Shown: positions 4,168 through 38,364 of the stretch, one piece after another | Position numbering within the stretch: position 1 is the first letter of the stretch | Layout of the letters: the number at the start of each line of letters is the position of its first letter | Source: an uncultured Bacteroidales bacterium | GTDB lineage: Bacteria > Bacteroidota > Bacteroidia > Bacteroidales > UBA10428 | Length of the DNA stretch: 64,000 nucleotides | Direction of reading: 5' to 3' | NCBI GenBank assembly: GCA_964406315.1 | Contig: CAYORG010000013.1 | Location: forward strand, 365-64,364 | Notes under the pieces: model-generated | Database searches by the model: none | What the model was told of the DNA's origin: nothing | Seen by the model: only the letters and a program-made list of their open reading frames with translations | Made by a program: the position numbers and the translations under genes

Positions 4168-4170
4168 AAC

Positions 4171-5262: not shown

Positions 5263-5275
5263 ATAATTTTTTACT

Positions 5276-7006
5276 ATGGAAGAAATAAGAACAGGTGTCT
5301 ATATCTGTTGGTGCGGTTCGAACATTGCAAAAATGATTGATGTTCAGAGAATCGCTTCAGAAGCGCAAAAATTACCAAATGTTGTAATGGCGCGCGATTA
5401 CAAATATATGTGCTCCGATCCGGGACAGGATAAACTTATCGGCGATATTAAAGAGTTTAAGCTCAACCGTATTGTTATAGCAGCCTGCTCACCTCGCATT
5501 CATGAACCTACATTCCGAAAAGCCCTTGAACAAGCCGGCTTAAATCCCTATTTATTTCAAATGGCCAACATTCGGGAACAGGATTCATGGGTTCATATCG
5601 ACAGGGAATATGCCACACTAAAAGCACTTTCACTAATAAAAGCAGCTGTTAGCCGCGTAGAGCATCACAAATCTCTTGATAAAAAATTTGTAGAAGTTAA
5701 TCCAGCCACTCTTGTCATTGGAGGAGGAATAACAGGCATATCAGCCGCATTGGAAATAGCCGGAGCAGGAAAAAAGGTTTATCTGGTTGAAAAAACGGAT
5801 GCACTTGGAGGAATTGCAGCTAAACTTGACCTTACCTTCCCTTATCTGGAAAGTGCTCGCCAAATGCTTAAACCCAGGATTAAACAGGTTCAGTTGCACA
5901 AGTTAATTGATATCTTTCTTAACGCTTCTATCGAAGAAATAACAGGGTACGTCGGTAATTTTACATCGAAAATTCGACTGAAGGGTTTGGAAAAAGAATT
6001 ACAATTTGGAAATATCATTGTGGCTACCGGACTGCAACCTTTTAATCCGGCTTCGATTCCTGAATATGGGTATGGTAAGCTGCCTGACATAGTAACTTCA
6101 TTACAACTGGAAGAAATGCTGATTCAGGGAAATGTGATTACCAGTAAGGGGAAAGAACCAAAAAATATTGTCATAATTCATTGTGTTGGCAGCCGAAGCG
6201 CAAAGTATCATCCTTACTGTTCCCGGACATGCTGCTCTACAGCGCTGAAATATGCCAATCAACTTCTCTCAGTTTTACCCGACTCGAATATTTATGAATT
6301 GTATGCCGATATGCGAACGTTTGGAAAAGGATGCGAAGAGTTCTATTCCGATTCATCGCACAGGAAAATACTATTTCTGATGTTCGACCAGGAGAATAAT
6401 CTTCCCAAAATCAGTAAAGCACCCGAAAAAGATACATCAGAAATGATTATATCTATGCATGAAAAACTCTCAGGCGAAGATATTGAAATACCTGCCGATT
6501 TGGTTATCCTGATGACGGGGATGAAAGCCCAGCCTGACGCCAAAGATATAGCAAGGCTCACAGGTGTAAGCTTATGTGGTAATGACTTCTATATTGAAAA
6601 ACATCCAAAGCTCGACCCGGTTGCTACAACCACTGATGGAGTTTATATTGTTGGGAATTGTCAGAGCCCAAAAGATATTACTGAGAGTATTGCACAGGCA
6701 AAAGCAGCAACAGCCCGCGTGCTGGCGAGTATTGCTGTTGGCAATATGGAAGTTGAAGTCACCACCGCTCATGTAAATGAGGATGTATGCTGTGGATGCC
6801 AGACCTGTATTATGGTATGTCCCTATACGGCTATTCATTTTGATGAAGAGAAAAAAGTTTCGGTTGTAAATGAGGCTCTTTGCAAAGGTTGCGGTACATG
6901 TGGATCGACCTGTCCGACAGGTGCCATCGAAAGTCGCCATTTTACCGACATACAAATATTATCGCAAATCGAAGGTTTACTTAAAACTGAAAAAGAATCT
7001 ATCTAA
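5276..7006 (+). CDS. hdrA: Second HdrA-family protein (HdrA''): canonical Cys-bearing N-terminus and C-terminal 2x[4Fe-4S], no inserted ferredoxin
   Basis: [31 protein letters not shown]; VIGGGITG; [18 protein letters not shown]; [12 protein letters not shown] and [12 protein letters not shown]. Confidence 0.9.
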
Positions 7007-7011
7007 ATAGC

Positions 7012-7443
7012 ATGAATATGGCATTTGAACCCACAATCGTATCTTTTCTCTGCAACTGGTGTTCCTACACAGGGGCTGACCTGGCTGGAACTTCACGTAT
7101 TCCGTATGCACCCAACCTGCGTACCATTCGCATCATGTGTTCAGGTCGAATTGAACCCACATTTGTCTTAAAGGCATTTCGCGAAGGTGCTGATGGAGTG
7201 CTTATGTGTGGCTGTCATCCGGGAGATTGTCATTACCAGGAAGGCAACTATAAGTGCCTGAGGAGGTATTTCCTCTTACAAAAATACCTTCAGCAGATGG
7301 GTATAAGAAAAGAGCGGTTACGGTTGGAATGGATAAGTGCCAGCGAAGGGAAACAGTTTGCTGCCCTGGCTAATGATTTTACCGAAGCCATAAGGCAGCT
7401 TGGACCCTGCAAGGTAAAAACCGTGATGGATACACTAACCTGA
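7012..7443 (+). CDS. mvhD: Hydrogenase iron-sulfur subunit MvhD ([2Fe-2S])
   Basis: [36 protein letters not shown]. Confidence 0.95.
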
Positions 7444-7536
7444 TTTCGATTTAATGAAGTAAAATAAATAGTAATTCATAGGAGTAAAAATGCATAAGGC
7501 AGATGTAACTGAAATTTAAACCCTGGAGAAAAGATT

Positions 7537-8526
7537 ATGTCAAAAGAAAACAAAGAAAAACCCAAGCTTAAACTGGCAATATACTGGGGCGCTGCATGTG
7601 GTGGTTGCTGTGTATCGGTGCTCGATGTACATGAAAAATTATTTGATGTTGTAGCAGCTGCCGATCTGGTTTTCTGGCCGATAGCTCTCGATACGAAATA
7701 CGCCGATGTGGAGGCTATGGAAGACGGTTTTATAGATGTTACACTATATAATGGAGCAGTAAGAAATAGTGAAAATGAGCATATTGCCAAATTGCTACGT
7801 CAGAAATCCAAGATTTTAGTAGCTTACGGTTCATGTGCTCATATGGGAGGTATTCCCGGTTTGGCCAATTTTCATAACAGGGAACAGATTTTCGATAGAG
7901 TGTATAACACCAGTGAGTCGACTGTCAATAAAGAAAAAACTTTACCTCAAACAAGTTTTAAAGTAAGTGAAGGAATACTTACCCTACCGGAATTTTATAA
8001 TGATGTACGTCCATTGGATCAGGTTGTCGATGTGGACTACTACCTGCCCGGTTGTCCACCGCAAACCGAACGTTTTGTAGATGTGTTCATGGCTATAGCC
8101 AAAGGTACTGAGCTACCCCCGAACGGAGCTGTTGTGGGTGCCCTTGAAAAAACACAATGCGATGAGTGCAAACGAATTAAAACAGACAATAAGCGTATCA
8201 GGGAATTCAAGCGTCCTACAGAAGTAATCGATGATGGCGAAACCTGCTTTCTGGAACAGGGACTGATCTGTATGGGACCGGCAACACGCTGTGGTTGCGG
8301 TTATCGTTGCATTGAAGGAAATAGCCCCTGTCGCGGTTGTTACGGTCCTCCGTCAACATCACTTGATCCCGGAGCAAAAATGATGTCGGCTATTGCTACC
8401 ATGATCGATTCAAACGATCCGGCGGAAGTTGAAAAAATTATCGAGCAAATTGAAGATCCTGCAGGAACATTCTACCGTTTTAGTTTGCCAGGATCAATTC
8501 TTCGAAGAAAACTCATTGAAACATAA
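7537..8526 (+). CDS. mvhG: Group 3c [NiFe]-hydrogenase small subunit MvhG
   Basis: ACGGCCVS, YGSCA..GGIPG, LPGCPP, QCDEC, CFLEQGLICMGPATRCGC...C..GNSPCRGCYG. Confidence 0.9.
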   Translation: MSKENKEKPKLKLAIYWGAACGGCCVSVLDVHEKLFDVVAAADLVFWPIALDTKYADVEAMEDGFIDVTLYNGAVRNSENEHIAKLLRQKSKILVAYGSCAHMGGIPGLANFHNREQIFDRVYNTSESTVNKEKTLPQTSFKVSEGILTLPEFYNDVRPLDQVVDVDYYLPGCPPQTERFVDVFMAIAKGTELPPNGAVVGALEKTQCDECKRIKTDNKRIREFKRPTEVIDDGETCFLEQGLICMGPATRCGCGYRCIEGNSPCRGCYGPPSTSLDPGAKMMSAIATMIDSNDPAEVEKIIEQIEDPAGTFYRFSLPGSILRRKLIET

Positions 8527-8528
8527 AC

Positions 8529-9998
8529 GTGATGCAACAATATACCATCGATCCCATAACACGGCTTGAAGGACACGGCAAAATAGAAATATTCTGCAAT
8601 GACGATGGAGAGGTTGAGAATGTATATTTTCAGGTACCGGAGTTACGTGGTTTTGAAAAATTCTGTGAAGGCCGTCCTGTTGAAGAACTCTCCCAAATCG
8701 TTACAAAAATATGCGGCGTATGTCCGGGGTGTCACCATATGGCTTCTGGGAAAGCCGCCGATGCCGTCTATGGAACAGAGCCGACTCCTACGGCCAAAAA
8801 ATTACGCGAACTGTTCTACATGGCACACTTTATTCATAGTCATACAGCACATTTTTATGCTCTTGCAGCACCCGATTTTATCGTTGGTCCTACCGCGAAA
8901 AAGGAAGAAAGAAATATCCTGGGTGTAATAGCCAGAGTAGGAAAAGAAACAGGTACGGAAGTTATTAAACAACGGCGGCTGGCACAGGAAATTCAGGCAT
9001 TGCTCGGAGGACATCAGACCCATGTTGTAATGAACATACCCGGAGGTGTGAAGAAAGGATTGACGGCAGAACAGCGGGATGACATCGTGGAAAGAGCCAA
9101 AGGATTTATTGAATTTTCAAAATTCTCATTAAAGCTTTTTCATGATTTGGTTCTGGGCAACAAGGATTATGTAGATCTTATTCTTCATGGACCCTATTCT
9201 CTGAAAATCCATTCCATGGGGCTTGTAGATTCTAATAATAAGGTGAATTTCTACGATGGAAAAGTCAGGGTGGTCGATACGGAAGGCAAGGAATTATGCA
9301 AATATTCTCCCAATGAGTATATGAACTATGTGGCTGAAAGGGTTGAACCCTGGAGCTACCTGAAATTCCCATACCTGAAACAAAAAGGATGGAACGGATT
9401 CAATGAAGGTGCTGACTCGGGTGTTTATCATGCCACACCCCTCTCACGTCTTAATGCAGCAAATGGAATGGCCACTCCTCTTGCACAGAAAGAATATGAA
9501 GCAATGTACAATACCCTGGGTGGTAAACCTGTCCATTCAACCCTGGTTATGCACTGGGCTCGATTGATTGAATTGCTGTATGCTTCGGAGCATTGTCTGG
9601 AACTTATAGAAGATCCTGAAATCACTGGAAAAGAGTTACGGAACATGCCTGAAAAGGTAGTGGGTGAAGGTATTGGTATTGTGGAAGCACAGCGAGGTAC
9701 CCTGACACATCATTATTGGACAGACAAAAAAGGGATCGTTACCAGGGTGAATATTATTGTGGGTACCACAAACAACAATGCAGCCATATGCATGTCGCTG
9801 AAGAAAGCAGCTCAGAATATCATTAAAAAAGGAGTGGAAGTGACAGACGGTATTCTAAACATGATCGAAATGGCTTTCAGAGCCTATGATCCCTGCTTCT
9901 CCTGTGCAACTCATTCACTGCCCGGTGAGATGCCCCTGGTCGTAAACTTCAGAAATTCTAAGGGAGAAATCATCAGATCCGTAAAGAGAAAACCTTAA
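8529..9998 (+). CDS. mvhA: Group 3c [NiFe]-hydrogenase large subunit MvhA
   Basis: IDPITRLEGHG; L1 KICGVCPGCH; EAQRGTLTHHY; L2 AFRAYDPCFSCATH followed by a 27-residue cleavable tail. All four Ni ligands are Cys. GTG start at 8529 or ATG at 8532. Confidence 0.93.
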   Translation: MMQQYTIDPITRLEGHGKIEIFCNDDGEVENVYFQVPELRGFEKFCEGRPVEELSQIVTKICGVCPGCHHMASGKAADAVYGTEPTPTAKKLRELFYMAHFIHSHTAHFYALAAPDFIVGPTAKKEERNILGVIARVGKETGTEVIKQRRLAQEIQALLGGHQTHVVMNIPGGVKKGLTAEQRDDIVERAKGFIEFSKFSLKLFHDLVLGNKDYVDLILHGPYSLKIHSMGLVDSNNKVNFYDGKVRVVDTEGKELCKYSPNEYMNYVAERVEPWSYLKFPYLKQKGWNGFNEGADSGVYHATPLSRLNAANGMATPLAQKEYEAMYNTLGGKPVHSTLVMHWARLIELLYASEHCLELIEDPEITGKELRNMPEKVVGEGIGIVEAQRGTLTHHYWTDKKGIVTRVNIIVGTTNNNAAICMSLKKAAQNIIKKGVEVTDGILNMIEMAFRAYDPCFSCATHSLPGEMPLVVNFRNSKGEIIRSVKRKP

Positions 9999-14248: not shown

Positions 14249-15463
14249 ATGAATAAAAAATACATCATGAGGATAATACCCACTAAACTATTCTTCATCT
14301 GCCTCTTATTGTATTTCGTTAGTATAAACGAAAACCTGAAAGCTTGCACCAGCTTTGCCGTATACAGTAATTCGGGAACTATATATTATGGTATGAACTT
14401 TGATTATCAGCATGTTGAAATGAGATTTTCTATCGCAGAGAACAATGATCTTAAATATTTTCATCTCGAATTTAATAGTAATGGTTATTTTTCTTCCACT
14501 GTCGGTATGAACAGCAAAGGTTTGTTCTCTTCTTGTCAAATGTTATATCCGGAAGTCAATGAATGGCATTATCCCGGTGAAGATACCATACATATCGGTC
14601 AGTTATATTATCTATCCCTCACAAATACGGGTAGTGTTGATACAATTGTTGAATATCTTCAAATAACCGGCATGAAAGTCATTCATACCTACGGACTGAC
14701 TTTACACGATATATTTGCCGACACATCCGGCAATGCAATTGTACTTGAAGTTGGCAATCCTGACCCATTGATAACAGAAATTCAAAACCAGTTTCTGGTG
14801 ATGACAAATTTTCCAAATAGTGATTTTGAAGGACAACCCTATTATGAGGTTACAGGAGTTGGAGCAGACAGATACAAAGCAGCTTATGAATATATTGAGT
14901 CGAATATCGAAGATTTTAATTATGAGGATGCTTTTGAAACATTACAGCGCACAGTGCAATCGTCAGGTAGTTTTGCCACACAATGTTCTTTTGTATTCGA
15001 CCCTTTAAATCTGAATATATTCATAGTAATAGAGCGAAACTTTGACAAAATATGGAAAGTTGATCTGGAAAACAGCACCATTGAAACCTATTCCGGATTT
15101 GATAGCTATCACAACCTGGTAATAGATAGTCAGGGAGTATTAGCTTCAGATCTGGAAACTATCTTCACAAAATTAAATGCAACTTATAATACAGGAAAGA
15201 ATGCTATATCCTTCGCTTATCCAAATCCTTTTAATAACCACCTAAATATAGAATTTGAAATCGATGTTCCAGGTCATGTTATTCTGGATATTTATGATAT
15301 AAATGGACAGAAAATTCAGACCCTTATAGATGAGCATTACAATCATGGTTCCCATAATTGTATATGGCAACCTGAAAAAATAACTCCCGGAGTCTATTTT
15401 TACAATCTTATCACTGGTGTTAAAACAGAAACCGGGAAAATAATTTTCATAGAAAATTTATAA
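14249..15463 (+). CDS. Ntn-hydrolase (choloylglycine hydrolase/penicillin V acylase-like) with T9SS type-A C-terminal domain
   Basis: Signal peptide ending LKA|CTSF; GMNFD, MTNF, DRY catalytic-type residues; C-terminal AYPNPFN...IYDINGQKI...GVYFY...KII. Confidence 0.75.
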   Translation: MNKKYIMRIIPTKLFFICLLLYFVSINENLKACTSFAVYSNSGTIYYGMNFDYQHVEMRFSIAENNDLKYFHLEFNSNGYFSSTVGMNSKGLFSSCQMLYPEVNEWHYPGEDTIHIGQLYYLSLTNTGSVDTIVEYLQITGMKVIHTYGLTLHDIFADTSGNAIVLEVGNPDPLITEIQNQFLVMTNFPNSDFEGQPYYEVTGVGADRYKAAYEYIESNIEDFNYEDAFETLQRTVQSSGSFATQCSFVFDPLNLNIFIVIERNFDKIWKVDLENSTIETYSGFDSYHNLVIDSQGVLASDLETIFTKLNATYNTGKNAISFAYPNPFNNHLNIEFEIDVPGHVILDIYDINGQKIQTLIDEHYNHGSHNCIWQPEKITPGVYFYNLITGVKTETGKIIFIENL

Positions 15464-19114: not shown

Positions 19115-20656
19115 TTATCTGACAATTGTAATGTTAACCACATTACCGGTATCGGTTACGATGAAGTAATTGCCCATGGGTAAAAGATTTCCTGCATTGT
19201 TTGTGCCGTCCCAATAGTCAGGTGTTGCCAGTTCTTTTATGAGATTGCCATCACGGTTGTATATCTTAACTGAACCTTCGTGCGGTATAAAATACCTGTC
19301 TTCTATATCATCACCATTAGGAGTAAATACAGGATAATTTTCAAGGCATTTTTGCAGGATTGTAATTCTTTCCGGGAAAGTTGCAATACAATCCCTGGCG
19401 TCGATCACCTCAAGATTATACACACCTTCGGGTACATCAGATAATGAAGCGTGCAATTGTCCGGTAAGTATATTCCGCAGCCTGTACTTGTACTCTCCAA
19501 TGTAATTTCTTACCTCGGAATCAGTGATATCAACAGTGCCTTCATTCCAGCAATCAGCTTCCTCCTTATGAAATTGCATTGCGGAGATCTCCAGTATGTT
19601 GACATCTACCTGAATGGTATCGTAGTCAGCACAGCCATATTCGTTAACGGCTTTGACAATTAATGTGGTATCTTCAAATACTTCAATGGTTTCACCTGTT
19701 ATCTGATCCGACCAATAAACAACAGTATTACTTTCTGATACAACATCTGTCTGAAGCACAACCCTGTCACATTCCTGTTGTTCTATTACATTGATCACCG
19801 GGGTCTCAATCACTTCAATATAAACGGTGTCTGTTGCCTGGCAGCCGTCCTGATCAGTGATCACAATATAATACCCGCTTTCCGATAATTCATTTACCGG
19901 ATTGTAAGTTTCCTGGCCGTCGTAAAATGTAAAATCAACAAGACTTATTTCATTACGTGTATAATCTGAGCCTTCACAAACCGAAAAAGTATCCTCTTCC
20001 AGGTCCAGAAATATAGTCTCAAGTATGGATATTTCCATATGATCCTCTTCCAGACAATAATCGGTTTCAAGAGTAAGTGTATAGTTCCCCGGGGCACTTC
20101 TTTCAGATACGATGGCTCCCATGCTATCTATATATAATCCCGGTGGATCAGACACAAAAGAAACCTGCTCCAGCGGCAGATCCGTAACAGGCAAAACTCT
20201 TTCAGCTCCCATACAAATCCTTGTTTCCGGATAATCAAAACTATACGAAGAGGCTTCAAAAGCGCCAATAGTAAGCACACATGAAGCATCTACAGAGTCA
20301 ATAGCATATTGAACATTGGATGCATTGCAATCTCTTGAAAGTGAGTAGACAGAAAATTCAAGGTTCATATAATCAGGAGACACATCGAGCTGTCCGCCAC
20401 TAAAGATTTCAAGCATATTTAATGAATCCGGATAATACACTATCGATTCGTAATATTGATTATCATCAGTACCTAAAGTATTCACAGAAATCATATCACC
20501 GGCTTGCAAAGGCATGCTATCCAATAAGGGGATGCAGTCGAGATGAATATACAAATTTGTATCACAGACAATGGAATCTCCTGCCTGGCAATAACTATGA
20601 ATCATACACAAATTGCATACTATTAAAAAAACAATATGGAAAATCTTTTTTTTCAC
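19115..20656 (-). CDS. T9SS type-B cargo (gliding motility-associated C-terminal domain) surface protein
   Basis: Signal peptide; Cys-paired Ig-like/SprB-like repeats; VFTPNGDDIEDRY...IYNRDG...WDG...LPMGNY...ITIVR. Confidence 0.85.
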   Translation of the reverse strand: MKKKIFHIVFLIVCNLCMIHSYCQAGDSIVCDTNLYIHLDCIPLLDSMPLQAGDMISVNTLGTDDNQYYESIVYYPDSLNMLEIFSGGQLDVSPDYMNLEFSVYSLSRDCNASNVQYAIDSVDASCVLTIGAFEASSYSFDYPETRICMGAERVLPVTDLPLEQVSFVSDPPGLYIDSMGAIVSERSAPGNYTLTLETDYCLEEDHMEISILETIFLDLEEDTFSVCEGSDYTRNEISLVDFTFYDGQETYNPVNELSESGYYIVITDQDGCQATDTVYIEVIETPVINVIEQQECDRVVLQTDVVSESNTVVYWSDQITGETIEVFEDTTLIVKAVNEYGCADYDTIQVDVNILEISAMQFHKEEADCWNEGTVDITDSEVRNYIGEYKYRLRNILTGQLHASLSDVPEGVYNLEVIDARDCIATFPERITILQKCLENYPVFTPNGDDIEDRYFIPHEGSVKIYNRDGNLIKELATPDYWDGTNNAGNLLPMGNYFIVTDTGNVVNITIVR

Positions 20657-20836
20657 TCCAAAATTTTTCTGCCATATCAGGTATCATTGATCAATAGTCT
20701 TATGTGAATGCTCGTATTCTGTAGTATCTCTGAATTCAATACCTGTACTACAAACAGTATGGCTTGTAAATTTAATGATTCTGGTGTTATATAAAATTAA
20801 ACTTTTCTCCATACTCTCATTCTTTTTTAATTAAAG

Positions 20837-20868
20837 TATCCGGAGAGTTCGTAAAAACCCTCCGGATA
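20837..20868 (-). terminator. Hairpin terminator downstream of the PKD gene
   Basis: TATCCGGAG / CTCCGGATA stem. Confidence 0.5.
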
Positions 20869-20884
20869 TTGGCAGCGATTAATA

Positions 20885-22636
20885 CTACTTAATAACACTA
20901 ACTCTCCCTCTGAGAACTAGTTCAGACGAGGAGATCAGGTATATATAGGATCCGGTCTCAAATTCATTCAGCGGAATTTCCAGCTGATTGTTACCGGCTG
21001 TAGCCAAATAGCTTGTTCTTCTCTTCACTGCTTTCCCCAGCATGTCAATAAACTGGATTGTGATCTGGCGTTCGGTATCACTGAAAAGATCAATAACCAG
21101 ATTGTCAGATGCCGGATTTGGGTATGCATTCAGTATAGACAGTGCTTTATCTGATTGTGGTGGAATGAATCCACTGGGATTGCATTCGGCCCTGAAAATA
21201 CTGTCTCTGTTTTCCCATGATACAAGGATTGTTTTGCATGTTCTTGCTGCACAATTGTTTTCATAAAACACCTCCAGACATACATCATAATAGCCTTCAT
21301 TTGTATAAATATGAGCAGCGATCGGATCATAAGAATAATATCCATCACCAAAATCCCAGGAATAAGACCATGCTTCACGTTCCAGTATGGGAGTAAACAT
21401 ATGAGCTATATCGTAACCCAAACAATCAGGCACCAACAATTCCCAGGTGAAATCTACAGAGCAATAAGCATTACCGACATTTACAGTAGTACAATAGGTA
21501 TCACTACATCCATTTTCCGAATATATATGAAGGCATACATCATATAGCCCCGGTTCATAGTAAATATGCACAGGATTCTTTTCGCTTGAATACGACCCGT
21601 CGCCAAACTCCCATCTTGACTCATAAGGTTCAGGTGTTGATAAGTTCTTAAAGCCCACAGCAAAAACATCATCGCTATAATATACATCATCGGCCATGCT
21701 GCTGTAATTGCAATATTCGAAATAGGCAGCGCAACTATCTGGTATACCAACTGTAACATGAGTGCAATATGTATCTTCACAACCATCCGAACAAGACACT
21801 GTCAGGCATACATTGTATATACCGGACGCGGGAAATTCATGAAACGGATGTTGCTCTTCAGATGTGGTGCTATCATCAAAATCCCAGTACCATTGGGTGA
21901 CATTTCCTTCTGAAAGATCGATAAAATGCAACAGTGTACTGCCAGGAAAATCATAGACCGGAGTATCAACCGGACAGTAATACCAGAACATTGCCTTGCA
22001 ATCTCCAGGAATAGAATCTGTAACATGAATTGTCTCGCAATAACTACTATAACAACTGTCTGATGTTACAATAGTCAGACAAACCTCGTAATTGCCCGGG
22101 GCTGGAAATTCATACACAGGATTTTCCACTCCGTCAATAACCTCATCTTCAAATTGCCAGTGCCATTCAATCACATCACCTGTAGACCGGTCGTAAAACT
22201 GATACACATAAGCCATAGGTGGGATTGTATCAGAAGAAACAGAATCCACGGGAAACACGGGAATACGCTCATAGACAAATGAAGCCTGACATTCAGGTTC
22301 TTCAACCGGCTGACAACAGGTCAGATGTACCAGAAATCCGATACCACACTGATTCGATACGGAATCTATCACTTCGAAGCCAAAAACAATACGCAGGCTG
22401 TCGTGAAAAAAATCCGGAACAGAATTATCAGCAAGCTGAAGACTGGTCCCATTATCCATAATGATCTGATATCCGCAACTGTCAACTGACAAATCGATAA
22501 CTGTTCCATAATACGTACAATCGTCACTATAGTCACCAGACTGTGCACCTGATGCCATAGATGTAAGAAAAAAAATACTGAGCAATAAAAAAATGCCCAA
22601 AGAAGATTTAGTGCTGGGTTTTAATTTGGTATACAT
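20885..22636 (-). CDS. PKD-repeat protein (about 4 PKD domains) with T9SS type-A CTD
   Basis: Repeated C..F...F.D.S.G....W.WDF.D....S...P.H.F...G.Y.VCL...C..TYC; C-terminal AYPNPASD...DMLGK...GSYIY. Confidence 0.88.
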   Translation of the reverse strand: MYTKLKPSTKSSLGIFLLLSIFFLTSMASGAQSGDYSDDCTYYGTVIDLSVDSCGYQIIMDNGTSLQLADNSVPDFFHDSLRIVFGFEVIDSVSNQCGIGFLVHLTCCQPVEEPECQASFVYERIPVFPVDSVSSDTIPPMAYVYQFYDRSTGDVIEWHWQFEDEVIDGVENPVYEFPAPGNYEVCLTIVTSDSCYSSYCETIHVTDSIPGDCKAMFWYYCPVDTPVYDFPGSTLLHFIDLSEGNVTQWYWDFDDSTTSEEQHPFHEFPASGIYNVCLTVSCSDGCEDTYCTHVTVGIPDSCAAYFEYCNYSSMADDVYYSDDVFAVGFKNLSTPEPYESRWEFGDGSYSSEKNPVHIYYEPGLYDVCLHIYSENGCSDTYCTTVNVGNAYCSVDFTWELLVPDCLGYDIAHMFTPILEREAWSYSWDFGDGYYSYDPIAAHIYTNEGYYDVCLEVFYENNCAARTCKTILVSWENRDSIFRAECNPSGFIPPQSDKALSILNAYPNPASDNLVIDLFSDTERQITIQFIDMLGKAVKRRTSYLATAGNNQLEIPLNEFETGSYIYLISSSELVLRGRVSVIK

Positions 22637-22760
22637 AATTCGATATTATTTGATTATTCATATATAATCAAACTACAATCGAACAATGAAAAAGTAACCT
22701 TCAGCAGCAATTCTGATAATTCATAAACAGCAAAGACTTCGCACAGGGTAATTACCAGTA

Positions 22761-23672
22761 CTACAAATGATAAACTAATCCAAGTTCAAGATAATCGGTA
22801 TTGATCTCAACATTACGAACAGGTGAAAATACATAGGTAAGATGGATATTCAATTTGCTTTTGGATGAGAGCACATCATTGATCCCCGCACAAATGTTGA
22901 TCATATCATTATCATGCAACCCGGTTGAAATAAATAACCTCTCATGAATCGTAAGATTGATATTCATATCAAACAACATTTTATGGGTTGCATATTCATC
23001 CTTTTTTGTCAATGGGATACACAAGGCCAGGTTGGGGACAATAAGAAAGTCTTCGGAAAAATACCACTTTCTTTCTGCAGTAATATTTATATAGGGAGCC
23101 AGCACGGTGATTTCCTCCAGAGGTTTGATCTCACTATTAAAAATCTGATTCACGGAAATACCGGCATGAAAAGAAGAGTTATACAATTGAACTCCAACTG
23201 CCGCATCAGGTTTAATATCAGATCCATCGCCTGATAAAGGTGTGCCTTTCACCATGTAATTCATCCCTCCTATTTGAAATCCCCCGGCAAATTTGATCTG
23301 CTTTGTAAGATTTCCATGCCAGACATAGATCGCATAAAACCGGCTGCGATTTAAATATTTACCTTCACGATCGTTGTACAACAACACACCAATTGTACTA
23401 AACGGTTTATTCATTCCATTGCCTGACAGGATCCTCATGTTCGCATTAAAATAATAAGTGGATATTTTGCTGAAATTACCGAGCATTCTTCGGTTACCCA
23501 GTGAAAGCTCAAGCTTTGCGCGGGAACCTGCCGTGGATGGATTCAACAAGGGATAACAATCATAATATTGATTGAACCGTACAGGATATCTGACAACCTG
23601 ATACTGGCCATTCAAAACAAAAACATGACGCAGCAACAAAATAACAATGACTATGTGTTTCCAGATTGCCAA
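22761..23672 (-). CDS. PorP/SprF family T9SS outer-membrane protein
   Basis: FNQYYDCYPLLNPSTAG, IGVLLYNDREG, PDAAVG, GISVNQ pattern; lies upstream of type-B cargo. Confidence 0.8.
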   Translation of the reverse strand: MAIWKHIVIVILLLRHVFVLNGQYQVVRYPVRFNQYYDCYPLLNPSTAGSRAKLELSLGNRRMLGNFSKISTYYFNANMRILSGNGMNKPFSTIGVLLYNDREGKYLNRSRFYAIYVWHGNLTKQIKFAGGFQIGGMNYMVKGTPLSGDGSDIKPDAAVGVQLYNSSFHAGISVNQIFNSEIKPLEEITVLAPYINITAERKWYFSEDFLIVPNLALCIPLTKKDEYATHKMLFDMNINLTIHERLFISTGLHDNDMINICAGINDVLSSKSKLNIHLTYVFSPVRNVEINTDYLELGLVYHL

Positions 23673-23735
23673 AATAGTAGATTACGCGCTGGTTGAACTG
23701 TTTTTCCCAGGAACAATAATTATTCCATACTTTTT

Positions 23736-24443
23736 TTGATCACCAAAAATAATCAACTTGAACTAATATTGGACAAAAGTTATTTCGCTGATAAAAGAAT
23801 TTTGACTATTATACGGGAAATGGTTACTTTCCATTTTCATATTTGTAGTATTAAAAAAGCCAGTAATTCCGGAAAACTGAAAACAACGAACTCAGAAATA
23901 GTAAACTGTCTTAAAAACGGTTATAATGATAAGATCTTGGAGCATCTGTATACCGGAGTATTCCCGAAAGTGAAAGCGTATGTCCTGTCGAATTCCGGTT
24001 CATGTGATGATGCAATAGACATTTTTCAGGATGCTGTTGTCATTCTTTGCAAACACATAAAATCAGGCAGGTATAACACAAACTATGAAATAGATGCTTT
24101 TTTATATAGTGTAAGCAGAAATTTATGGATCAATAAAGCAAAAAGGGATCTCCGGCAAACAGAGCTGCCTGAAAACTATGAAGAAAAGGAACCATATGAT
24201 TTTACTGATGACATCATTACCCATGAAAAAGAAAAAACCATTAAACAATTGATTCGTGAACTGGGGAAAAAATGTTATGAATTGCTTTCATATGCTCTCT
24301 ACCAGAATTTATCCGGAGAGGAAATTTGCAAAAAGATGGGGTTTGCCACGGTAAATGCCGTAAAAACACAAAAATACAAATGCAAACAAAAACTGATCAA
24401 GATGATTGAAACGAATCCTTCGTATAAAGAAGTCCTTGAATAA
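23736..24443 (+). CDS. ECF sigma-70 factor (true start probably later: ATG 23820 or CTG 23877)
   Basis: Region 2 DAIDIFQDAVVIL..., FLYSVSRNLW; region 4 LGKKCYELL...EEICKKMGFATVNAVKTQKYKCKQKL. Confidence 0.9.
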   Translation: MITKNNQLELILDKSYFADKRILTIIREMVTFHFHICSIKKASNSGKLKTTNSEIVNCLKNGYNDKILEHLYTGVFPKVKAYVLSNSGSCDDAIDIFQDAVVILCKHIKSGRYNTNYEIDAFLYSVSRNLWINKAKRDLRQTELPENYEEKEPYDFTDDIITHEKEKTIKQLIRELGKKCYELLSYALYQNLSGEEICKKMGFATVNAVKTQKYKCKQKLIKMIETNPSYKEVLE

Positions 24444-24444
24444 T

Positions 24445-25605
24445 ATGACAAAAGACATAGATAAATATGAACTCATAGAACGGTATCTGACAGGTCAATT
24501 GTCGGCTGAAAAATTAACTGACCTTGAGCGTCGTATAGAACGTGATCCTGATTTTGCGCGTGAAGTAGACAAGCACAGGGCAATTTCTTCGATCATTCGG
24601 GATGGAGTATTGCTGGAGATCAGGGAAAAAGTGAAAACAATACACAAAAGCAAAACATCCTATACCCTGTTCCGGAATTCAGGGAGAAGAATAATAACCC
24701 TGTCAGTTGCAGGTGTATTGATTTTCATGTCCATAATGTTCATAAGGAATATCAGAAAAGATCGTGATGGCAGGCTACCCGGAGAACAAGCACTTCCTGT
24801 AACAGATACTTCAATCAGGCAGAATCAGAGAACAGACAGTGTTCATAATGGATCATTTCAGATAAACAAGAAAAAAGCCGCACCAACTATGCATGAAAAT
24901 CTATATAAGAAACCATCAACGCCTGGTATTGAAAAGATATCCAATAAAGCCGATACAGCACAGGAAGAAAAAACAATCAATATCATACGAGCAAAAAAGA
25001 TGCAGGTTTCCGATTCAACAGTTGTAACTCCGGAACTTATGCCTGTTGCTGATGATAATGAATCGCATGCCGATCATGGAACAGATAGTATGGATTGCAG
25101 CCAGGTTGCGATCTTTGCCAGGGTAGAAACTGAAGAAAGTTGCGAACAAAGACCCACTGGCAGAATACGTATTGTGAAAACATCAATTCAGGGAGGGACA
25201 CCGCCGTATAGTGTGTCGATAGACAATGGCAAAAATTTCTATCCATCATTTGTATTTGAAAAATTATATCCAGGAAGTTATATGTTATGGTTGAAAGACA
25301 AATACAATTGCATGACAAAAACAGGAAATTACCGTATACCGTCTGTCGACTGCGACTTTGATTTTATCTTTGCGCCCGATGAAGGAGAACTATGGAAAGC
25401 ACCAAGTTATGGCGATGCAGGTTTTTTGAAAATCTATACCAAACAGGGTAAACTTGTATTTACAAACCGGATCGATTATGGTGAAATATATTTGTGGGAT
25501 GGCATGTCTTTAACGGATAATCCCCTGCCCATGGGAGTATATCGTTTCATCCTTGAACTTGATAACCACGATCCGGTAGTTGGTAATGTGACTATTGTAA
25601 GATAG
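24445..25605 (+). CDS. Anti-sigma-like single-pass membrane protein ending in a SprB-like repeat and a T9SS type-B CTD
   Basis: ATG 1 nt after the sigma stop. N-terminal ELIERYLTGQLS...DPDFAREV helices; TM ITLSVAGVLIFMSIMFI; charged linker; GGTPPYSVSIDNG repeat; LKIYTKQG...WDG...LPMGVY...NVTIVR. Confidence 0.7.
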   Translation: MTKDIDKYELIERYLTGQLSAEKLTDLERRIERDPDFAREVDKHRAISSIIRDGVLLEIREKVKTIHKSKTSYTLFRNSGRRIITLSVAGVLIFMSIMFIRNIRKDRDGRLPGEQALPVTDTSIRQNQRTDSVHNGSFQINKKKAAPTMHENLYKKPSTPGIEKISNKADTAQEEKTINIIRAKKMQVSDSTVVTPELMPVADDNESHADHGTDSMDCSQVAIFARVETEESCEQRPTGRIRIVKTSIQGGTPPYSVSIDNGKNFYPSFVFEKLYPGSYMLWLKDKYNCMTKTGNYRIPSVDCDFDFIFAPDEGELWKAPSYGDAGFLKIYTKQGKLVFTNRIDYGEIYLWDGMSLTDNPLPMGVYRFILELDNHDPVVGNVTIVR

Positions 25606-25812: not shown

Positions 25813-26751
25813 TTACTGCCTGATAAAAGCCAGTACTTCCATCAGAAAAGCTATGCCTCCGTGGATAAAAACTCCTCCCCAGATATTCCGGCTATACAAC
25901 GCTATTATACCCAGGATGTATCCACCAAAAACCGAACTTATGGCTTCACCCATAGGTTTACCAAAATGCAAAACTGCATATGCGGCAGTCATAGGAAGTA
26001 CAACATTTTTCCCTAGAAGTCTGGATAAACCGATGACCAAAAACCCTCTGAAAAAGACCTCTGTATTTAAAAAACTTGAGAGGTATACCGTTTCGTACAG
26101 CAACATGCTTATTTTTTTAGAAAATTGATAATAATTCGCAAAATGAACACCTCCCGATCCCTTGTAGGTAGGATAATAATCAATAAAATCAGGTGTAAAT
26201 GATGCTATAAGAACAAGCGGGGAAACTACAAGGAACATCAAAAAATAAATACGATAATTTACTTTCCTGAAACGCAATCCATAGATGCCAAAATCTTCCC
26301 GTCTGTCGAATATACATTTCATGATTGCCAGCATTCCCAGGATGGTGATAAAACCATACACATTGTATACCAATTCACGACAGAACTTGAATATATGAGA
26401 TGGAACAAAGTTTTTCAGAACTTCTGCAATATAAGGAAACACTGAGCGATCAACCGATAGAATAAGGAATCCAAGGATGCTTTTAATCCAAAACTCAGAG
26501 GAAAGCAAGAGCTTCCCCCTGCCAAAAAAATAAATGATCAGTAAAACACCAAAATAAGCCTGTGCATGATAACAGAAATAGAAAAGTATACGGATAGGTT
26601 TGCCATAATACCTGTCAATGTAACTGTTTTCAATATCAAATAAATAGTTTATAGTAATCAGGGTAACAATAAAGAGAGCAATAAAAACATACATTTTTGT
26701 ATGGTAATACTCTTTATGAAAATCTCTGAAATACCTGAATATTATTTTCAT
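25813..26751 (-). CDS. CPBP family (CAAX/Abi) intramembrane metalloprotease
   Basis: Multiple TM helices; TEVFFRGF, LHFGKPMGE, IHGGIA motifs. Confidence 0.85.
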   Translation of the reverse strand: MKIIFRYFRDFHKEYYHTKMYVFIALFIVTLITINYLFDIENSYIDRYYGKPIRILFYFCYHAQAYFGVLLIIYFFGRGKLLLSSEFWIKSILGFLILSVDRSVFPYIAEVLKNFVPSHIFKFCRELVYNVYGFITILGMLAIMKCIFDRREDFGIYGLRFRKVNYRIYFLMFLVVSPLVLIASFTPDFIDYYPTYKGSGGVHFANYYQFSKKISMLLYETVYLSSFLNTEVFFRGFLVIGLSRLLGKNVVLPMTAAYAVLHFGKPMGEAISSVFGGYILGIIALYSRNIWGGVFIHGGIAFLMEVLAFIRQ

Positions 26752-26975: not shown

Positions 26976-27707
26976 ATGAAATACTCATTGTCGTTTTTAT
27001 TGTTCGCAAGCCTCAGCATTCATGTTATATCTCAACCTGTCAGAGTCGTCCCTTACTATGAATGGTCAGATCCAATTGCTTTTCAGTTAAGTCGCAGTCC
27101 GTTAATTACCGGATACGGAGAATGCAGCGATTCACTGTCCCAGGTTTATGATGGAATGATCTTCTATGAATACAATGGCGCGTATTATGGAATTGAAAAC
27201 TGGGCAGATTACTATTACTGGTATACAAAAAAATACTGGTACTATTTCGATGAACCCGAATTGTATGAATTTTTCTATCTTACAGGAAATGATTATGGAA
27301 TGGCATCCTATATTGCAGGCAATTATTACAGATGCCATTACTACCCTTCATTGATCTCTTTACAATTCACAAATCGAAAACCTCAATACAACAGACTCAG
27401 AGATACAAAATACTGTGCTCAGAGTGCCAAAGAAATAAAACGATTGAATAAGGCCCTGGATAATGCGTTTGTAAAAAAGTTGAATTCGTCACAAAAAAAG
27501 GAATCATATTGTCAAAAATACAGGAATTATTCATACTCCTATAGCGGAACGCATACAACATGTGCATACAAAATTGCCGGCAAAACAGGTTATGCAGGGC
27601 AAAGAAACAGACAAGCACCTGTTAATTCCTCTGTAAACAGGATTTCATCCACTGTTCAGTCATCAGGAACAACAGAACTTGCACGAGTTGCAGAAACATT
27701 GAAATAA
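26976..27707 (+). CDS. Secreted Tyr-rich hypothetical protein
   Basis: 243-aa ORF with a signal peptide, a Tyr/Trp-rich central segment and a basic tail; no family recognised. Confidence 0.6.
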   Translation: MKYSLSFLLFASLSIHVISQPVRVVPYYEWSDPIAFQLSRSPLITGYGECSDSLSQVYDGMIFYEYNGAYYGIENWADYYYWYTKKYWYYFDEPELYEFFYLTGNDYGMASYIAGNYYRCHYYPSLISLQFTNRKPQYNRLRDTKYCAQSAKEIKRLNKALDNAFVKKLNSSQKKESYCQKYRNYSYSYSGTHTTCAYKIAGKTGYAGQRNRQAPVNSSVNRISSTVQSSGTTELARVAETLK

Positions 27708-34628: not shown

Positions 34629-37600
34629 TTATTTAAGCATTATTAATTTAATTGTCTCAACATTGTTCTTATCGGAAAGACGAACAGTATATATTCCATT
34701 TCCGGAATGTTCATTGTATTGATCGTTCCCGTACCAATCAATATAATAAGTCCCGCCGGTAAGATATTCATCCACAAGAACGTCAACAAGTCTTCCGCTG
34801 ATATCAAATATTTCCAGACGATAATTCCCATCCAAATATACATTAAACTGAATTGTTGTGAAATCCCTGAACGGATTTGGGAAACATTCAAATGATGAAG
34901 TTAAGGGATCTGGTATTTTTTGTTCTTCATGATATAATACTCCTGTATTTGGTTCACAGGGGGTTCCTCCTATTCCAACCGCCTGCCAGTTTTCACCTTT
35001 TGTATTGTCATACGAAGGATGTATTAACTCAATGGTTGCTCCGGTTCCATTGGCATTTTCAGGCCACGGAGAATAAATATAATAATCAACAGCATCCATA
35101 AGGTAACCTTCATCGTCATACAACCGAATCATATCCCCATTGCTGCTCAGACCAAAAGGCATATCTCCCACAGAATTTTGCCGGTTGGGATAAAATGTAC
35201 GAAAAGCTTCCAGATCCCGACAAATCAAAAGATAATCATTAGGTACCATTGTAATGGATGGAAAGTAATACCCGTCATCCGGCCCTGTATCACTTAACAG
35301 CCAACCGTTCAAATTCACTGTTGTTTGTCCGTTGTTCACTATTTCTATCCAATCCTTAGTGTCAAGATTCGGAGCAGAATTGTAATTGATTTCGTTGATA
35401 ACAACAGAAATGTCTGAACTTCCTGCTTCTTCAAAAACAGCAGTAAAACTACCACCGGCAGCCATGTCATAGTTGATGCTGATATTCGTTGAGTTCAATG
35501 TTCCTTCCCATCTGACAAATTTATACCCTGCCTTTGGGATAGCTGTCATTTTGATGGGAACATCTTTAAAATATATTCCTGAGAATGGATAATCTTTCGG
35601 ATAGATAGAATTTAACTTGACCTTCCCGGCTTCGGTATCTGATACATCAATAGTAATTTGTTGTTCATTTCCCAGATTGAATACACTTTGCATATGTGCA
35701 CGTGAGTAATTAGGTCTTCTCAGGGCAAAGGTTTTTTTATCTTCAATTTTCGAACTCCAGTTGTTATACGAACCCCACCAGCGGTTGATATGATACACAA
35801 TCTCACTGCCAAATAAATCTTTTAATGAATCCAACTGGGCAATAGCTACAGATGGTAAAAAGTCTTGGTTAAGCCTGTCGCAATATTGATTGATAAAATT
35901 GTACCTGAATCCTATATTGGTAACCATCCTCCGTAAAAATAAGGTAGACCACGAAGGATTTGGCCAACCGGATTCGTTTGGTTCCAGGGCAAATTCCAGG
36001 GTATTCAAAGTGTAATCGGTTACCTCCCAGATCCCATAACCAAAATCGGTATCAAATAATATCCATCTCCATTTGCTCTCAACAGAATTGGTATTCCAGA
36101 ATTTGATATTATTTCCCGGCCAGTCACGATTGTTAATGTAGATCTGTGTCAATTGATACTGGATGAAATTATCAATATCGATTTTATCTGCCACCCATGT
36201 ATAAACACTGTTGTCGTAAAGTGAGGAATGTGAATTCAGATAGTTGATAATTTCAAGGTATTCCGTGTTGTCTCCGAAAATTATATTTCCTGCATTTTCA
36301 AGCAGATTAACAGATTCAGGATCAACGAGATGATTCTCTGCAACAAAATGCTCATTCACTTTTTCCCTGATGTTCAGTATTCCCCAATACTCTCCGTTCA
36401 AATAAAATGCAGATGGCTGAAAAGCTTGTCTGTCGGTATTCATTTTACTGGTCAAGCCGGCCATAAATCCGTCATGAAACTGGAGTCCCATGTTATCATT
36501 GCCTGAGTTTCTCAGCACAAGAGCTTCAAATTTCTCAATAGGTTTGTCTGCAAAAAATTTGTATTCAAAGGAACCTTTGCCGTACTGACTGCGTGCAAAA
36601 AGGGACATGGATTTCTGGTCGCTTCCGCGCGACCAGCCACCAAATATTTTTGTACCTGCACCCTGATCAACTTTTTTCTCTCCTGAAACATCATACAGTT
36701 CAAAATGAACCGGTTTTTCCCAATCCTGCCAAAAATTAGCTCCAAAATAAGGATAATCGGGTTCGGCATTCGGCCCAAGTACATAGATCCCCGTAAGCTC
36801 ATCCCACAAATTATCAGGCTCAGTGGATATACAAACAATTGGGAAATCGTGGTCAAGTTCTGTTGCATAGGTATTTGTAACCACCGGACCGGGCAAACTT
36901 AAAGGATCAATTACTCTTGCCCGCAAAACTGTACTGGTATTTATTTGTATAGGTCCTGTATAAAGGTTGTCATCCGTTCCCGGTATTGAACCGTCAAAAG
37001 TATAATAAATAGGATCTGAGGGATTGCTTGAGGAAAGTGATACTGTTGTACCTCCCAAATGCTTTCCTCCAATAACAGAAAATACAACTGTATCTCCGGT
37101 TTGCTGATCGACTCCCTGTGTATTGTTCGGTCCCTTCGGAGTTGGTTCTCCGAAATAAAACCAGTTTTCCGTTCCATCCGGTTTTCTTCCGTATGAAACA
37201 TCGCTAAGCAGCAGGGTAGCACTTACAGAATCAACCAGTACACCCAAAGGATCAAACAAATAAAAACTCTCACCATCGGCTTTCAATTTGAAATTGGTAT
37301 GCAAACCTTCGCCCGGAAATGACAAATACGGAGATACCTGTTCGGTATGCCCTGAACCGGACCTTCCGATAGACAGGAACGGAATAAGAGACATATCTGA
37401 AGAAGTAAGACTAACATTATGCCCCTGGATGGCTATCACATTGACACCTTCAACTAAAATCGTCTGGGGATCAGTAATTTCATGATATTCAGGAGAGCCT
37501 CCCTGATACATCTCCGCTTCATGCAACAAGCCATTTGTTCCCTGATCAAAAGGAATTTCTTCTCCCGGATTACCAAGATTCATCCGTGCTATTTCGTGAC

Positions 37601-38168
37601 CATTCACATAGGCAACGAATCCATCGTCATAATCAATGTGTAATACCAGTTTTTGAATGCTTGACAGATCAGTAATAACAAACTCCTTCCTGATAAAAAC
37701 ACTCATTGTAGTTGGAATCACCGTATTGTCGTCCCCATCCTCATACCCAAAACCGCTGCTCCCTGTATTCCATGATGATGCATCATATCCTGCATAGCGC
37801 CAGCTTGTCCCTATTTCCGAATCAGGAACTATATATTCCCATGTATCACCCCAGTCTATTAAGGTTTGGTAGGTCAACCCTATTTCTTTCCTGTCTTTTC
37901 CCGAAGCAAACACTAACATATATTCACCTGCATTGAAGGAATATTCCGGAAATGTCCATTTATCAGTAATCAGAATCTCATCTGAAAGCGCATATCCTCC
38001 AATGTCGATCGGGACCGAACCTGAATTGTATATTTCTATCCAGTCAAAGTATTCATTATCTTCATCAACAATTCCGTTCACATTTGATGAAAGAAACTCA
38101 TTAATGAATATTTGTGCGTTGAGACAATAAGAATACCAAATCATTAAAATGAGAAACAGTACACGCAT
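34629..38168 (-). CDS. CotH kinase family protein with lamin-tail domains, FN3-associated domain and T9SS type-A CTD
   Basis: LTD motifs INEFLSSN..DWIEIYN and INEINY..DWIEI; LRNSGND, LNGEYWGILNIRE, NRDWPGNN, WRWILFDTDFG; C-terminal FPNPF...GIYTVRL. Confidence 0.88.
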   Translation of the reverse strand: MRVLFLILMIWYSYCLNAQIFINEFLSSNVNGIVDEDNEYFDWIEIYNSGSVPIDIGGYALSDEILITDKWTFPEYSFNAGEYMLVFASGKDRKEIGLTYQTLIDWGDTWEYIVPDSEIGTSWRYAGYDASSWNTGSSGFGYEDGDDNTVIPTTMSVFIRKEFVITDLSSIQKLVLHIDYDDGFVAYVNGHEIARMNLGNPGEEIPFDQGTNGLLHEAEMYQGGSPEYHEITDPQTILVEGVNVIAIQGHNVSLTSSDMSLIPFLSIGRSGSGHTEQVSPYLSFPGEGLHTNFKLKADGESFYLFDPLGVLVDSVSATLLLSDVSYGRKPDGTENWFYFGEPTPKGPNNTQGVDQQTGDTVVFSVIGGKHLGGTTVSLSSSNPSDPIYYTFDGSIPGTDDNLYTGPIQINTSTVLRARVIDPLSLPGPVVTNTYATELDHDFPIVCISTEPDNLWDELTGIYVLGPNAEPDYPYFGANFWQDWEKPVHFELYDVSGEKKVDQGAGTKIFGGWSRGSDQKSMSLFARSQYGKGSFEYKFFADKPIEKFEALVLRNSGNDNMGLQFHDGFMAGLTSKMNTDRQAFQPSAFYLNGEYWGILNIREKVNEHFVAENHLVDPESVNLLENAGNIIFGDNTEYLEIINYLNSHSSLYDNSVYTWVADKIDIDNFIQYQLTQIYINNRDWPGNNIKFWNTNSVESKWRWILFDTDFGYGIWEVTDYTLNTLEFALEPNESGWPNPSWSTLFLRRMVTNIGFRYNFINQYCDRLNQDFLPSVAIAQLDSLKDLFGSEIVYHINRWWGSYNNWSSKIEDKKTFALRRPNYSRAHMQSVFNLGNEQQITIDVSDTEAGKVKLNSIYPKDYPFSGIYFKDVPIKMTAIPKAGYKFVRWEGTLNSTNISINYDMAAGGSFTAVFEEAGSSDISVVINEINYNSAPNLDTKDWIEIVNNGQTTVNLNGWLLSDTGPDDGYYFPSITMVPNDYLLICRDLEAFRTFYPNRQNSVGDMPFGLSSNGDMIRLYDDEGYLMDAVDYYIYSPWPENANGTGATIELIHPSYDNTKGENWQAVGIGGTPCEPNTGVLYHEEQKIPDPLTSSFECFPNPFRDFTTIQFNVYLDGNYRLEIFDISGRLVDVLVDEYLTGGTYYIDWYGNDQYNEHSGNGIYTVRLSDKNNVETIKLIMLK

Positions 38169-38364
38169 GGTCAAATATAAGGAATATTAAGAAATCATTA
38201 ATTTTTATTAATAATCTACGTAAAGTATTCCATTTTGTTATTTAATTTAGGTATGATTTTTGTTTCTCAATAAAAAAACAATTAGTTTTGGTAACTTTTA
38301 ACGAAATCAACCGTATTTACTGAACAAATAACATAATTAAGAATTGATATTGCAATAAAGGAAG

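Follow-up and report, generated by a model that had tools for sequence, protein, structure and literature searches.

A gene cassette of Bacteroidota pairs an extracytoplasmic function sigma factor with a probable membrane-anchored anti-sigma factor that ends in a homologue of the type-B sorting signal of the type IX secretion system

Cell-surface signalling of the FecI/FecR/FecA type, and the trios of extracytoplasmic function (ECF) sigma factor, anti-sigma factor and SusC-like protein found in polysaccharide utilization loci (PULs) of Bacteroidota, consist of three parts: an outer-membrane β-barrel, an anti-sigma factor that crosses the inner membrane once and has its N-domain in the cytoplasm and its C-domain in the periplasm, and an ECF sigma factor that regulates its own gene. 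A 64-kb stretch of DNA from an uncultured Bacteroidales bacterium (contig CAYORG010000013.1; the whole stretch is referred to as the window, and coordinates are positions in it) encodes a trio of the same kind at 19115..25605, where, as in the FecIRA and PUL systems, the sigma factor is predicted to drive neighbouring envelope genes and the gene for the outer-membrane partner adjoins. [quoted passage not shown] None of 35 aligned members of the anti-sigma-like family contains a FecR/DUF4974 domain and no TonB-dependent receptor is conserved within the cassette across loci, which places it outside FecR-type cell-surface signalling, as the initial annotation of this DNA had proposed. On balance, we read the region as a self-contained regulatory and secretion cassette with the layout of cell-surface signalling, in which T9SS parts take the position of the TonB-dependent transducer.

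The protein encoded directly after the sigma gene (hereafter the partner) combines features of several described systems. The class I anti-sigma factors RskA, RslA and RsiW likewise have a helical N-domain of ~60-70 aa and one transmembrane (TM) helix, and are encoded directly after their ECF sigma factor; unlike them, the partner lacks the zinc-binding HxxxCxxC motif, has just three predicted helices before the TM helix and resembles them at a statistically weak level. The cargo of type-B cargo/shuttle pairs such as SprB/SprF, Fjoh_3952/3951 and PG1035/PorP (PMC9143113, PMC12618676) carries the same C-terminal combination of SprB repeat and CHU_C-type domain (~150-170 aa), again with a PorP/SprF gene adjoining. 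In contrast to such cargo, the partner is anchored in the membrane with its N-terminus inside, has an anti-sigma-like domain and no passenger domain, and its CTD scores under the curated thresholds. In the PorA-PorXY-SigP circuit of Porphyromonas gingivalis (PMC7712824, PMC12152298) a CTD-bearing T9SS protein likewise feeds a pathway that ends in an ECF sigma factor over T9SS-related genes. PorA, however, is a normal secreted CTD protein acting through the two-component pair PorY/PorX, and SigP works without a membrane anti-sigma factor, whereas in the cassette described here the CTD is part of the anti-sigma factor itself. The logic of the FlgM/sigma-28 pair is also related: the anti-sigma factor FlgM bears the signal for export by the flagellar machine, sigma-28 controls the late substrates of that machine, and transcription is thus gated by the machine's status. 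FlgM is soluble and exported whole by the flagellar type III system, whereas the partner is tethered to the membrane, its release would need proteolysis and its machine is the T9SS. Full-text literature searches yielded no report of an anti-sigma factor with a T9SS CTD, nor of an ECF group tied to PorP/SprF; in the main text of the ECF re-classification paper the T9SS comes up for SigP only.

The sigma gene (23877..24443, +) encodes 188 aa from a probable CTG start. Its product matches TIGR02937 with 50.0 bits (cut-off 42.9; aa 68-223 of the long open reading frame, ORF) and Sigma70_r2 (PF04542) with 28.8 bits (threshold 24), and with only sigma-2 and sigma-4 regions and a score over the curated threshold it belongs to the ECF (group 4) sigma-70 factors. 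The TAA stop codon (24441-24443) is followed after 1 nt by the ATG (24445) of the partner gene (24445..25605, +; 386 aa). This spacing agrees with the initial annotation, and all loci share the placement expected of a class I anti-sigma factor, co-directional with and directly 3' of the sigma gene (with a 4-nt overlap in L023). The partner consists of an anti-sigma-like N-domain of three helices, predicted to be cytoplasmic (aa 1-69; 24445..24651), a single TM helix (aa 83-101; 24691..24747), a disordered periplasmic linker (aa 105-215; 24757..25089), a SprB-like immunoglobulin (Ig) repeat with conserved cysteines (aa 216-300; 25090..25344) and a divergent type-B (CHU_C) CTD (aa 305-386 and the stop codon; 25357..25605), all on the forward strand. 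The AlphaFold2 model of the full-length protein, built from an 18-row alignment, places three helices (2-15, 21-33 and 35-69) ahead of the TM helix (80-104), followed by disorder at 107-215 (predicted local distance difference test score, pLDDT, <30) and β-sandwiches at 222-298 and 326-384; modelled by itself, the N-domain reaches a pLDDT of 85.

The N-domain is anti-sigma-like on the evidence of matches that are weak one by one, and the partner is a probable anti-sigma factor of class I. The window protein gives a weak match to the 'antisigma' model NF052375 (E 0.022, aa 10-49). Across the family NF052375 matches 8/35 members and PRK13920 ('putative anti-sigmaE') 10/35 (best 4.5e-6); both sets of matches fall at residues 9-49 and keep register with the N-terminus of the respective model, at scores far under the full-length cut-offs. 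When the partner sequence profile was compared with the PDB, RskA was the second-best entry (E 0.57, a weak match), and five of the top ten Foldseek matches of the N-domain are anti-sigma domains crystallised with their ECF sigma factor (RskA, RslA, RsiW), at non-significant values (E >1), with RskA again in second place. Foldseek with the full-length partner model returned only generic tandem Ig matches, and a word-indexed search using the N-domain and TM helix alone returned no matches. In a Saprospiraceae locus (L026, 340..1698), a related sigma factor is followed by a protein in which the same N-domain and TM helix are joined to a TPR-like periplasmic domain, next to a gene for a 1005-aa TPR-rich protein. 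Fused there to a different periplasmic domain behind a related sigma factor, the N-domain appears to be a portable anti-sigma module.

[quoted passage not shown] The sole hydrophobic peak lies at ~82-101 in 18/18 homologues, the first 30 residues are hydrophilic, the N-side flank is rich in K/R and the conserved cysteines are confined to the C-side of the helix. The partner therefore lacks the N-terminal Sec signal peptide of T9SS cargo, its only hydrophobic segment beginning at residue ~83, which bears out the original description of the protein as one with no cleavable signal peptide and one TM helix. The partner could also be thought of as a plain secreted T9SS cargo, in which the hydrophobic segment would serve for export, whether cleaved or not, and the N-domain would be unrelated to sigma; a type-B-like CTD and an adjoining shuttle gene would fit such a protein. 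We regard this as very improbable, since the hydrophobic segment begins at residue 83 and is preceded by a helical domain of 70 aa that is strongly conserved and has no hydrophobic stretch before it, since no Met that could serve as an alternative start lies between residue 1 of the window protein and the TM helix, and since the N-domain matches anti-sigma models in register and the gene is always found directly 3' of the sigma gene.

The linker that follows the TM helix was initially estimated at ~110 aa and measures 116 aa in the window protein and 104-141 aa (median 119) across the 35 proteins, so that its length is constrained although its sequence is not conserved. About 20 residues past the TM helix it contains a small D-[ST] island (aa 121-122, 24805..24810; D in 23/35 and S/T in 27/35 members), a candidate processing or docking site.

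The C-terminal module is, from sequence comparison, clearly a homologue of the type-B sorting signal. Within the cassette it resembles the C-terminus of a type-B cargo protein (19115..20656, -; 513 aa) that has an N-terminal signal peptide, a SprB-like repeat and a CHU_C CTD ending in NITIVR (CHU_C 34.2 bits against a gathering score of 27; TIGR04131 30.6 bits). This likeness, already remarked on in the initial annotation, extends over 80 aa in BLASTP (33% identity, E 9e-6). Profile-profile comparison with hhalign of the last 171 residues of 16 partners and the last 180 residues of 16 cognate cargo proteins gave 99.5% (E 8.5e-23) over 145 columns, with both alignments closing on the same final residue (…TIVR). 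The blocks common to the two sets are three cysteines, VF(A/T)P…, G.(I/V)KIY(N/D)..G.L, W.G…G..LPMG.Y and (N/G).(V/I)TI(V/I)R. In the partner family C233, C289 and C303 are invariant, and the conservation of cysteines at aligned positions in the anti-sigma and cargo modules fits an extracytoplasmic C-terminal module. CHU_C (PF13585) matches 34/35 family members at E<=0.01 (best 1.7e-9), and TIGR04131 matches 20/35 at 16-20 bits (cut-off 35), in alignments that reach the end of the profile and the last residue. The SprB-like repeat proposed from the window sequence is marginal in that protein alone (E 0.09); over the family it is upheld, with 18/35 members matching PF13573 (best 6.6e-9). The residues first given for the CTD (aa 320-399) are numbered on a 399-aa ORF with a TTG start, whereas the conserved start is the ATG at 24445.

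A hidden Markov model (HMM) of the last 82 residues of the partner also matches 40/144 giant SprB-repeat proteins, and 33 of these matches end <=3 residues from the C-terminus. (A profile search of 1.84 billion representatives with the whole protein was discarded as a census of the anti-sigma family; the SprB-repeat columns matched hundreds of SprB repeats and drew in giant adhesins by the thousand.) For the type-B CTD, a functional signal is reported to comprise 150-235 aa (PMC12618676). The folded periplasmic part of the partner, ~170 aa, is about that size, and because it contains no other folded domain, the CTD module should be the sensor.

The cassette is retained over a wide range of divergence. 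A search of 5.8 billion proteins identified 19 relatives of the partner, all of the same length and layout, and a scan of 185,579 species genomes identified 22 loci, in Bacteroidales metagenome-assembled genomes (MAGs) and in Cytophaga, including the cultured C. aurantiaca DSM 3654 (locus L023, NZ_KB903662.1, about 238.6-243 kb). All 35 aligned members, which share 21-83% identity with the window protein, keep the architecture. The gene for the PorP/SprF-family outer-membrane shuttle (22761..23672, -; 303 aa; 96.2 bits to PF11751) is divergent from sigma, and the same divergent porP-sigma-partner triad is present in 23/23 loci that retain the upstream DNA. The partner thus shares with type-B cargo the adjoining shuttle gene, and the neighbouring shuttle and the synteny between ECF sigma factor, TM helix, type-B CTD and porP that were initially suggested are borne out down to about 22% identity. 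Flanking genes vary among loci, which suggests that the cassette is mobile or at least autonomous. Most Bacteroidales loci have a type-A cargo gene with PKD domains and a type-B cargo gene after porP, the latter an orthologue of 19115..20656. In Cytophaga the type-B cargo gene instead sits inside the sigma operon (sigma, partner, cargo; L023 7417..10740) and porP is still divergent. Since the cargo gene has moved and porP has not, the invariant core consists of porP, the sigma gene and the gene for the CTD-bearing partner. One locus, L015, was considered as a cassette without cargo genes and set aside on account of an assembly gap in the porP region; the apparent fusion there of porP to a SusC-like C-terminus (5661..7262 of CP070654.1) is an assembly join, a run of N interrupting porP.

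The cassette is further tied together by a promoter-like motif, GGTTAC-N16-TGTAG, which has exactly two perfect matches in the window, both inside the cassette (0.47 matches expected by chance at one mismatch or fewer). The first (23822..23848, +) ends 28 nt before the sigma start codon, a distance fixed in 20 loci, while the second (22673..22699, -) is in the interval from porP to the PKD gene and precedes the ATG of the latter by 36 nt, a position shared by 11 loci. The Cytophaga variant is GTTTAC-N16-CGTAG. The joint pattern G[GT]TTAC-N16-[TC]GTAG has 33 matches in 415 kb of non-redundant loci, 20 of them before sigma at the fixed distance, 11 before the PKD gene and 2 elsewhere in the cassette, with zero outside the cassette and zero before porP. 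In classical ECF promoters the -35 element ends in AC, and a spacer of 16 nt separates it from a -10 element of the form (C/T)GTA, as in TGAAAC-N16-CGTA of Bacillus subtilis sigma-W. From its sequence and position we infer that the motif is the sigma factor's own promoter. It would follow that the sigma factor controls its own gene and the cargo operon, and that the shuttle gene, with no ECF motif upstream, stands outside the regulon. The only one-mismatch copy in the window (GGTTAT…TGTAG, 45955..45981, -) lies on the opposite strand inside the coding sequence of adenylosuccinate lyase with no gene start nearby and is probably a chance match. A scan for the sigma-70 consensus found sites no more numerous than in shuffled sequence and was uninformative for Bacteroidota promoters.

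The same motif bears on the start of the sigma gene, which had initially been placed at TTG 23736. The motif falls within the 235-aa ORF listed for sigma. In four loci (L004, L006, L008 and L025) in-frame stops intervene between the motif and the conserved N-terminus of sigma, with no intervening ATG, GTG or TTG. In ten loci, the window and L001, L003, L004, L005, L006, L008, L012, L016 and L025, a CTG occupies the codon that aligns with ATG or GTG elsewhere. Given these upstream stops and this codon alignment, translation most probably starts at CTG 23877, yielding the 188-aa product. About half of the sigma family appears to have a CTG start, and public gene calls for these proteins are truncated or extended (135, 152 and 208 aa).

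From these parts, with their topology, homology, synteny and motif, the following chain of events is proposed. The N-domain of the partner would sequester sigma in the cytoplasm. Once free, sigma would drive its own gene and the T9SS cargo genes, with PorP/SprF being made independently. The linker of 116 residues has a contour length of ~40 nm. This exceeds the typical Gram-negative periplasm, so the CTD module could reach the outer membrane and there, like the CTD of cargo, be recognised by the cognate PorP/SprF shuttle or by the translocon. The partner is tethered to the inner membrane and so could not be released; engagement of its CTD would instead lead to removal of the anti-sigma factor by regulated proteolysis and thereby free sigma. 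Control of anti-sigma proteolysis by an outer-membrane partner has a precedent in TonB-dependent transducers (PMC11637429). An empty shuttle or an active T9SS would switch cargo synthesis on, cargo occupying the non-recycled shuttle would switch it off, and this feedback would keep type-B cargo and shuttle in stoichiometric amounts.

The direction of this signal is pure inference on our part. That a free shuttle means 'on' is favoured because type-B cargo and shuttle appear to be required in stoichiometric proportion, with no recycling of the shuttle (PMC12618676), and because it is precisely the shuttle gene that the predicted regulon leaves out, the place one would expect of a set-point. The position of porP outside the regulon is also consistent with a reversed logic, in which PorP/SprF binds and protects the CTD of the anti-sigma factor until cargo CTDs or another signal displace it and proteolysis follows, making cargo a switch-like positive feedback. 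Homologous CTDs could well compete for one partner, and the shielding of an anti-sigma factor from proteolysis by its transducer is a known precedent (PMC11637429). Positive feedback with a limiting, non-recycled shuttle (PMC12618676) would, on the other hand, overproduce cargo that cannot be secreted, and we consider the reversed scheme unlikely. A stronger version of the free-shuttle scheme would make the tethered anti-sigma factor a genuine T9SS type-B substrate, whose CTD is seized by the translocon and PorP/SprF so that pulling or cleavage destroys the anti-sigma factor, in a FlgM-like checkpoint that matches cargo synthesis to free, non-recyclable shuttles; this we put forward as a tentative possibility only.

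Several observations weigh against a CTD-based sensor for the T9SS. The partner fails to score over a curated HMM threshold as type-B cargo would: the window protein reaches 22.4 bits with CHU_C, under the gathering score of 27, and gives no match to TIGR04131, for which no family member attains the cut-off of 35. The CTD predicted from the window sequence therefore stands through the family-wide CHU_C and sub-cut-off TIGR04131 matches and not through the window protein's own score. The FTPNGDG block that is canonical in the cargo is degenerate in the partner (VFAPDKGE), so that the CTD might bind PorP and yet not be secreted, or might be capable of neither. Within Bacteroidales, no co-variation was detected between the CTDs of anti-sigma factor and cargo of the same locus (p 0.53); the overall signal of locus-specific co-evolution (p 0.005) stems wholly from the split between Bacteroidales and Cytophaga and was dismissed. 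Taken one at a time, the matches that link the N-domain to anti-sigma models are weak (E 0.02 with the window protein, 0.57 in the PDB profile search and >1 in Foldseek). Finally, the type-B cargo gene of the window is set apart from the PKD gene by a strong terminator-like hairpin (20837..20868, -; a 14-bp stem with 6 GC pairs), with no conserved motif before the cargo gene, so that in Bacteroidales its control by sigma rests on read-through.

These points leave room for an ordinary ECF sigma/anti-sigma pair that serves a local adhesin-like T9SS cassette, its Ig-like module being a CTD relic reused as a generic ligand or stress sensor with no contact to PorP/SprF or the T9SS. The sub-threshold scores (TIGR04131 in every member, CHU_C in the window protein), the degenerate FTPNGDG block, the missing fine-scale co-evolution with the cargo CTD and the merely generic tandem Ig folds returned by Foldseek are all consistent with such a relic, as is the modularity of anti-sigma factors, a TPR domain taking the place of the module in L026. 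Yet at identities of about 22-95% the module retains every block that it has in common with the cargo CTD, up to the final residue, and its alignment is in register with the C-termini of true giant proteins of the SprB type. The partner has no other sensor domain, and in Cytophaga too, whose cargo gene has passed into the sigma operon, porP stays beside sigma. Both Cytophaga CTDs also carry the same PMG -> [DS]AG change, although this is a single event. We therefore rate the relic as possible and rather doubtful, and lean towards a module that resembles cell-surface signalling, with PorP/SprF or the T9SS in place of a TonB-dependent transducer. The initial suggestion of a T9SS-coupled sensor gains from the architecture and from a cassette-specific ECF-type promoter that ties sigma to T9SS cargo genes, and gets no help from fine-scale co-evolution of the CTDs.

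The hairpin may act in termination, in attenuation or in stabilising the mRNA, and its role bears on the membership of the type-B cargo gene in the ECF regulon. From gene order and motif positions, control of the type-B cargo by sigma is predicted to be direct in Cytophaga, probably direct in L011 and possibly direct in L009, where a copy of the motif lies ~400 nt upstream of the cargo gene. A TGTAG element before the type-B cargo gene of the window was rejected as part of an ECF motif; it has the wrong spacing to a -35 element and is unconserved even in the closest relative. The PKD gene (20885..22636, -), which follows the second motif, encodes a 583-aa cargo with four PKD domains (PKD_4, 151.7 bits) and a type-A CTD (Por_Secre_tail, 40.9 bits; TIGR04183, 31.8 bits; each over its cut-off), and is kept downstream of porP in most Bacteroidales loci.

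Outside the cassette, the window is ordinary chromosome of an anaerobic Bacteroidales, with genes for PheT, MurB, HtpG, adenylosuccinate lyase and a NiFe hydrogenase. Among public loci L005, from a Bacteroidales MAG, comes closest, with proteins 79-97% identical to those of the window. Two more type-A CTD cargo genes, both without the ECF motif, indicate that the organism uses the T9SS: 14249..15463 (+), with a product of the choloylglycine-hydrolase family, and 34629..38174 (-), encoding 1181 aa with CotH kinase-like, lamin-tail and CHB_HEX_C domains. A gene for a CPBP/Rce1-like intramembrane protease (25813..26751, -) is convergent with the anti-sigma gene; as a site-2 protease of the module it was rejected, being kept only in L005 and L006 and missing from the other cassettes. 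Beyond it, 26976..27707 (+) encodes a secreted 243-aa protein rich in Tyr and Trp (e.g. YYYWYTKKYWYYFDEPELYEFFY), which is 84% identical to its L005 counterpart and gave no match in Pfam or NCBIfam. At the other end of the window, 2356..9998 (+) encodes two FAD/4Fe-4S oxidoreductases (HdrA-like), a 4Fe-4S protein and the small and large subunits of a NiFe hydrogenase, a cluster that resembles an Mvh/Hdr-type electron-bifurcating hydrogenase module, here in a Bacteroidales genome.

Little is known of how Bacteroidota adjust T9SS cargo synthesis to what the machine can handle, and the one circuit studied, PorA-PorXY-SigP, is of the two-component type. The need for feedback is obvious because type-B cargo requires a stoichiometric, dedicated shuttle that is not recycled. 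The cassette is a compact and testable candidate for such feedback, with a copy of the sorting signal as its sensor, the shuttle as its outer-membrane partner and an output promoter recognisable from sequence; with the cultured C. aurantiaca DSM 3654 among its carriers, experiments are feasible. If the proposed scheme is true, PorP/SprF shuttles would form a third class of outer-membrane partner for ECF cell-surface signalling, a type-B CTD could serve as a signalling module, and the rule that CTD proteins are cargo with Sec signal peptides would be broken; the pair of sigma factor and promoter could then be used as a reporter of T9SS or shuttle status. Should the partner prove to be a type-B substrate in its own right, it would be the first T9SS client without a signal peptide, and one that spans the whole envelope.

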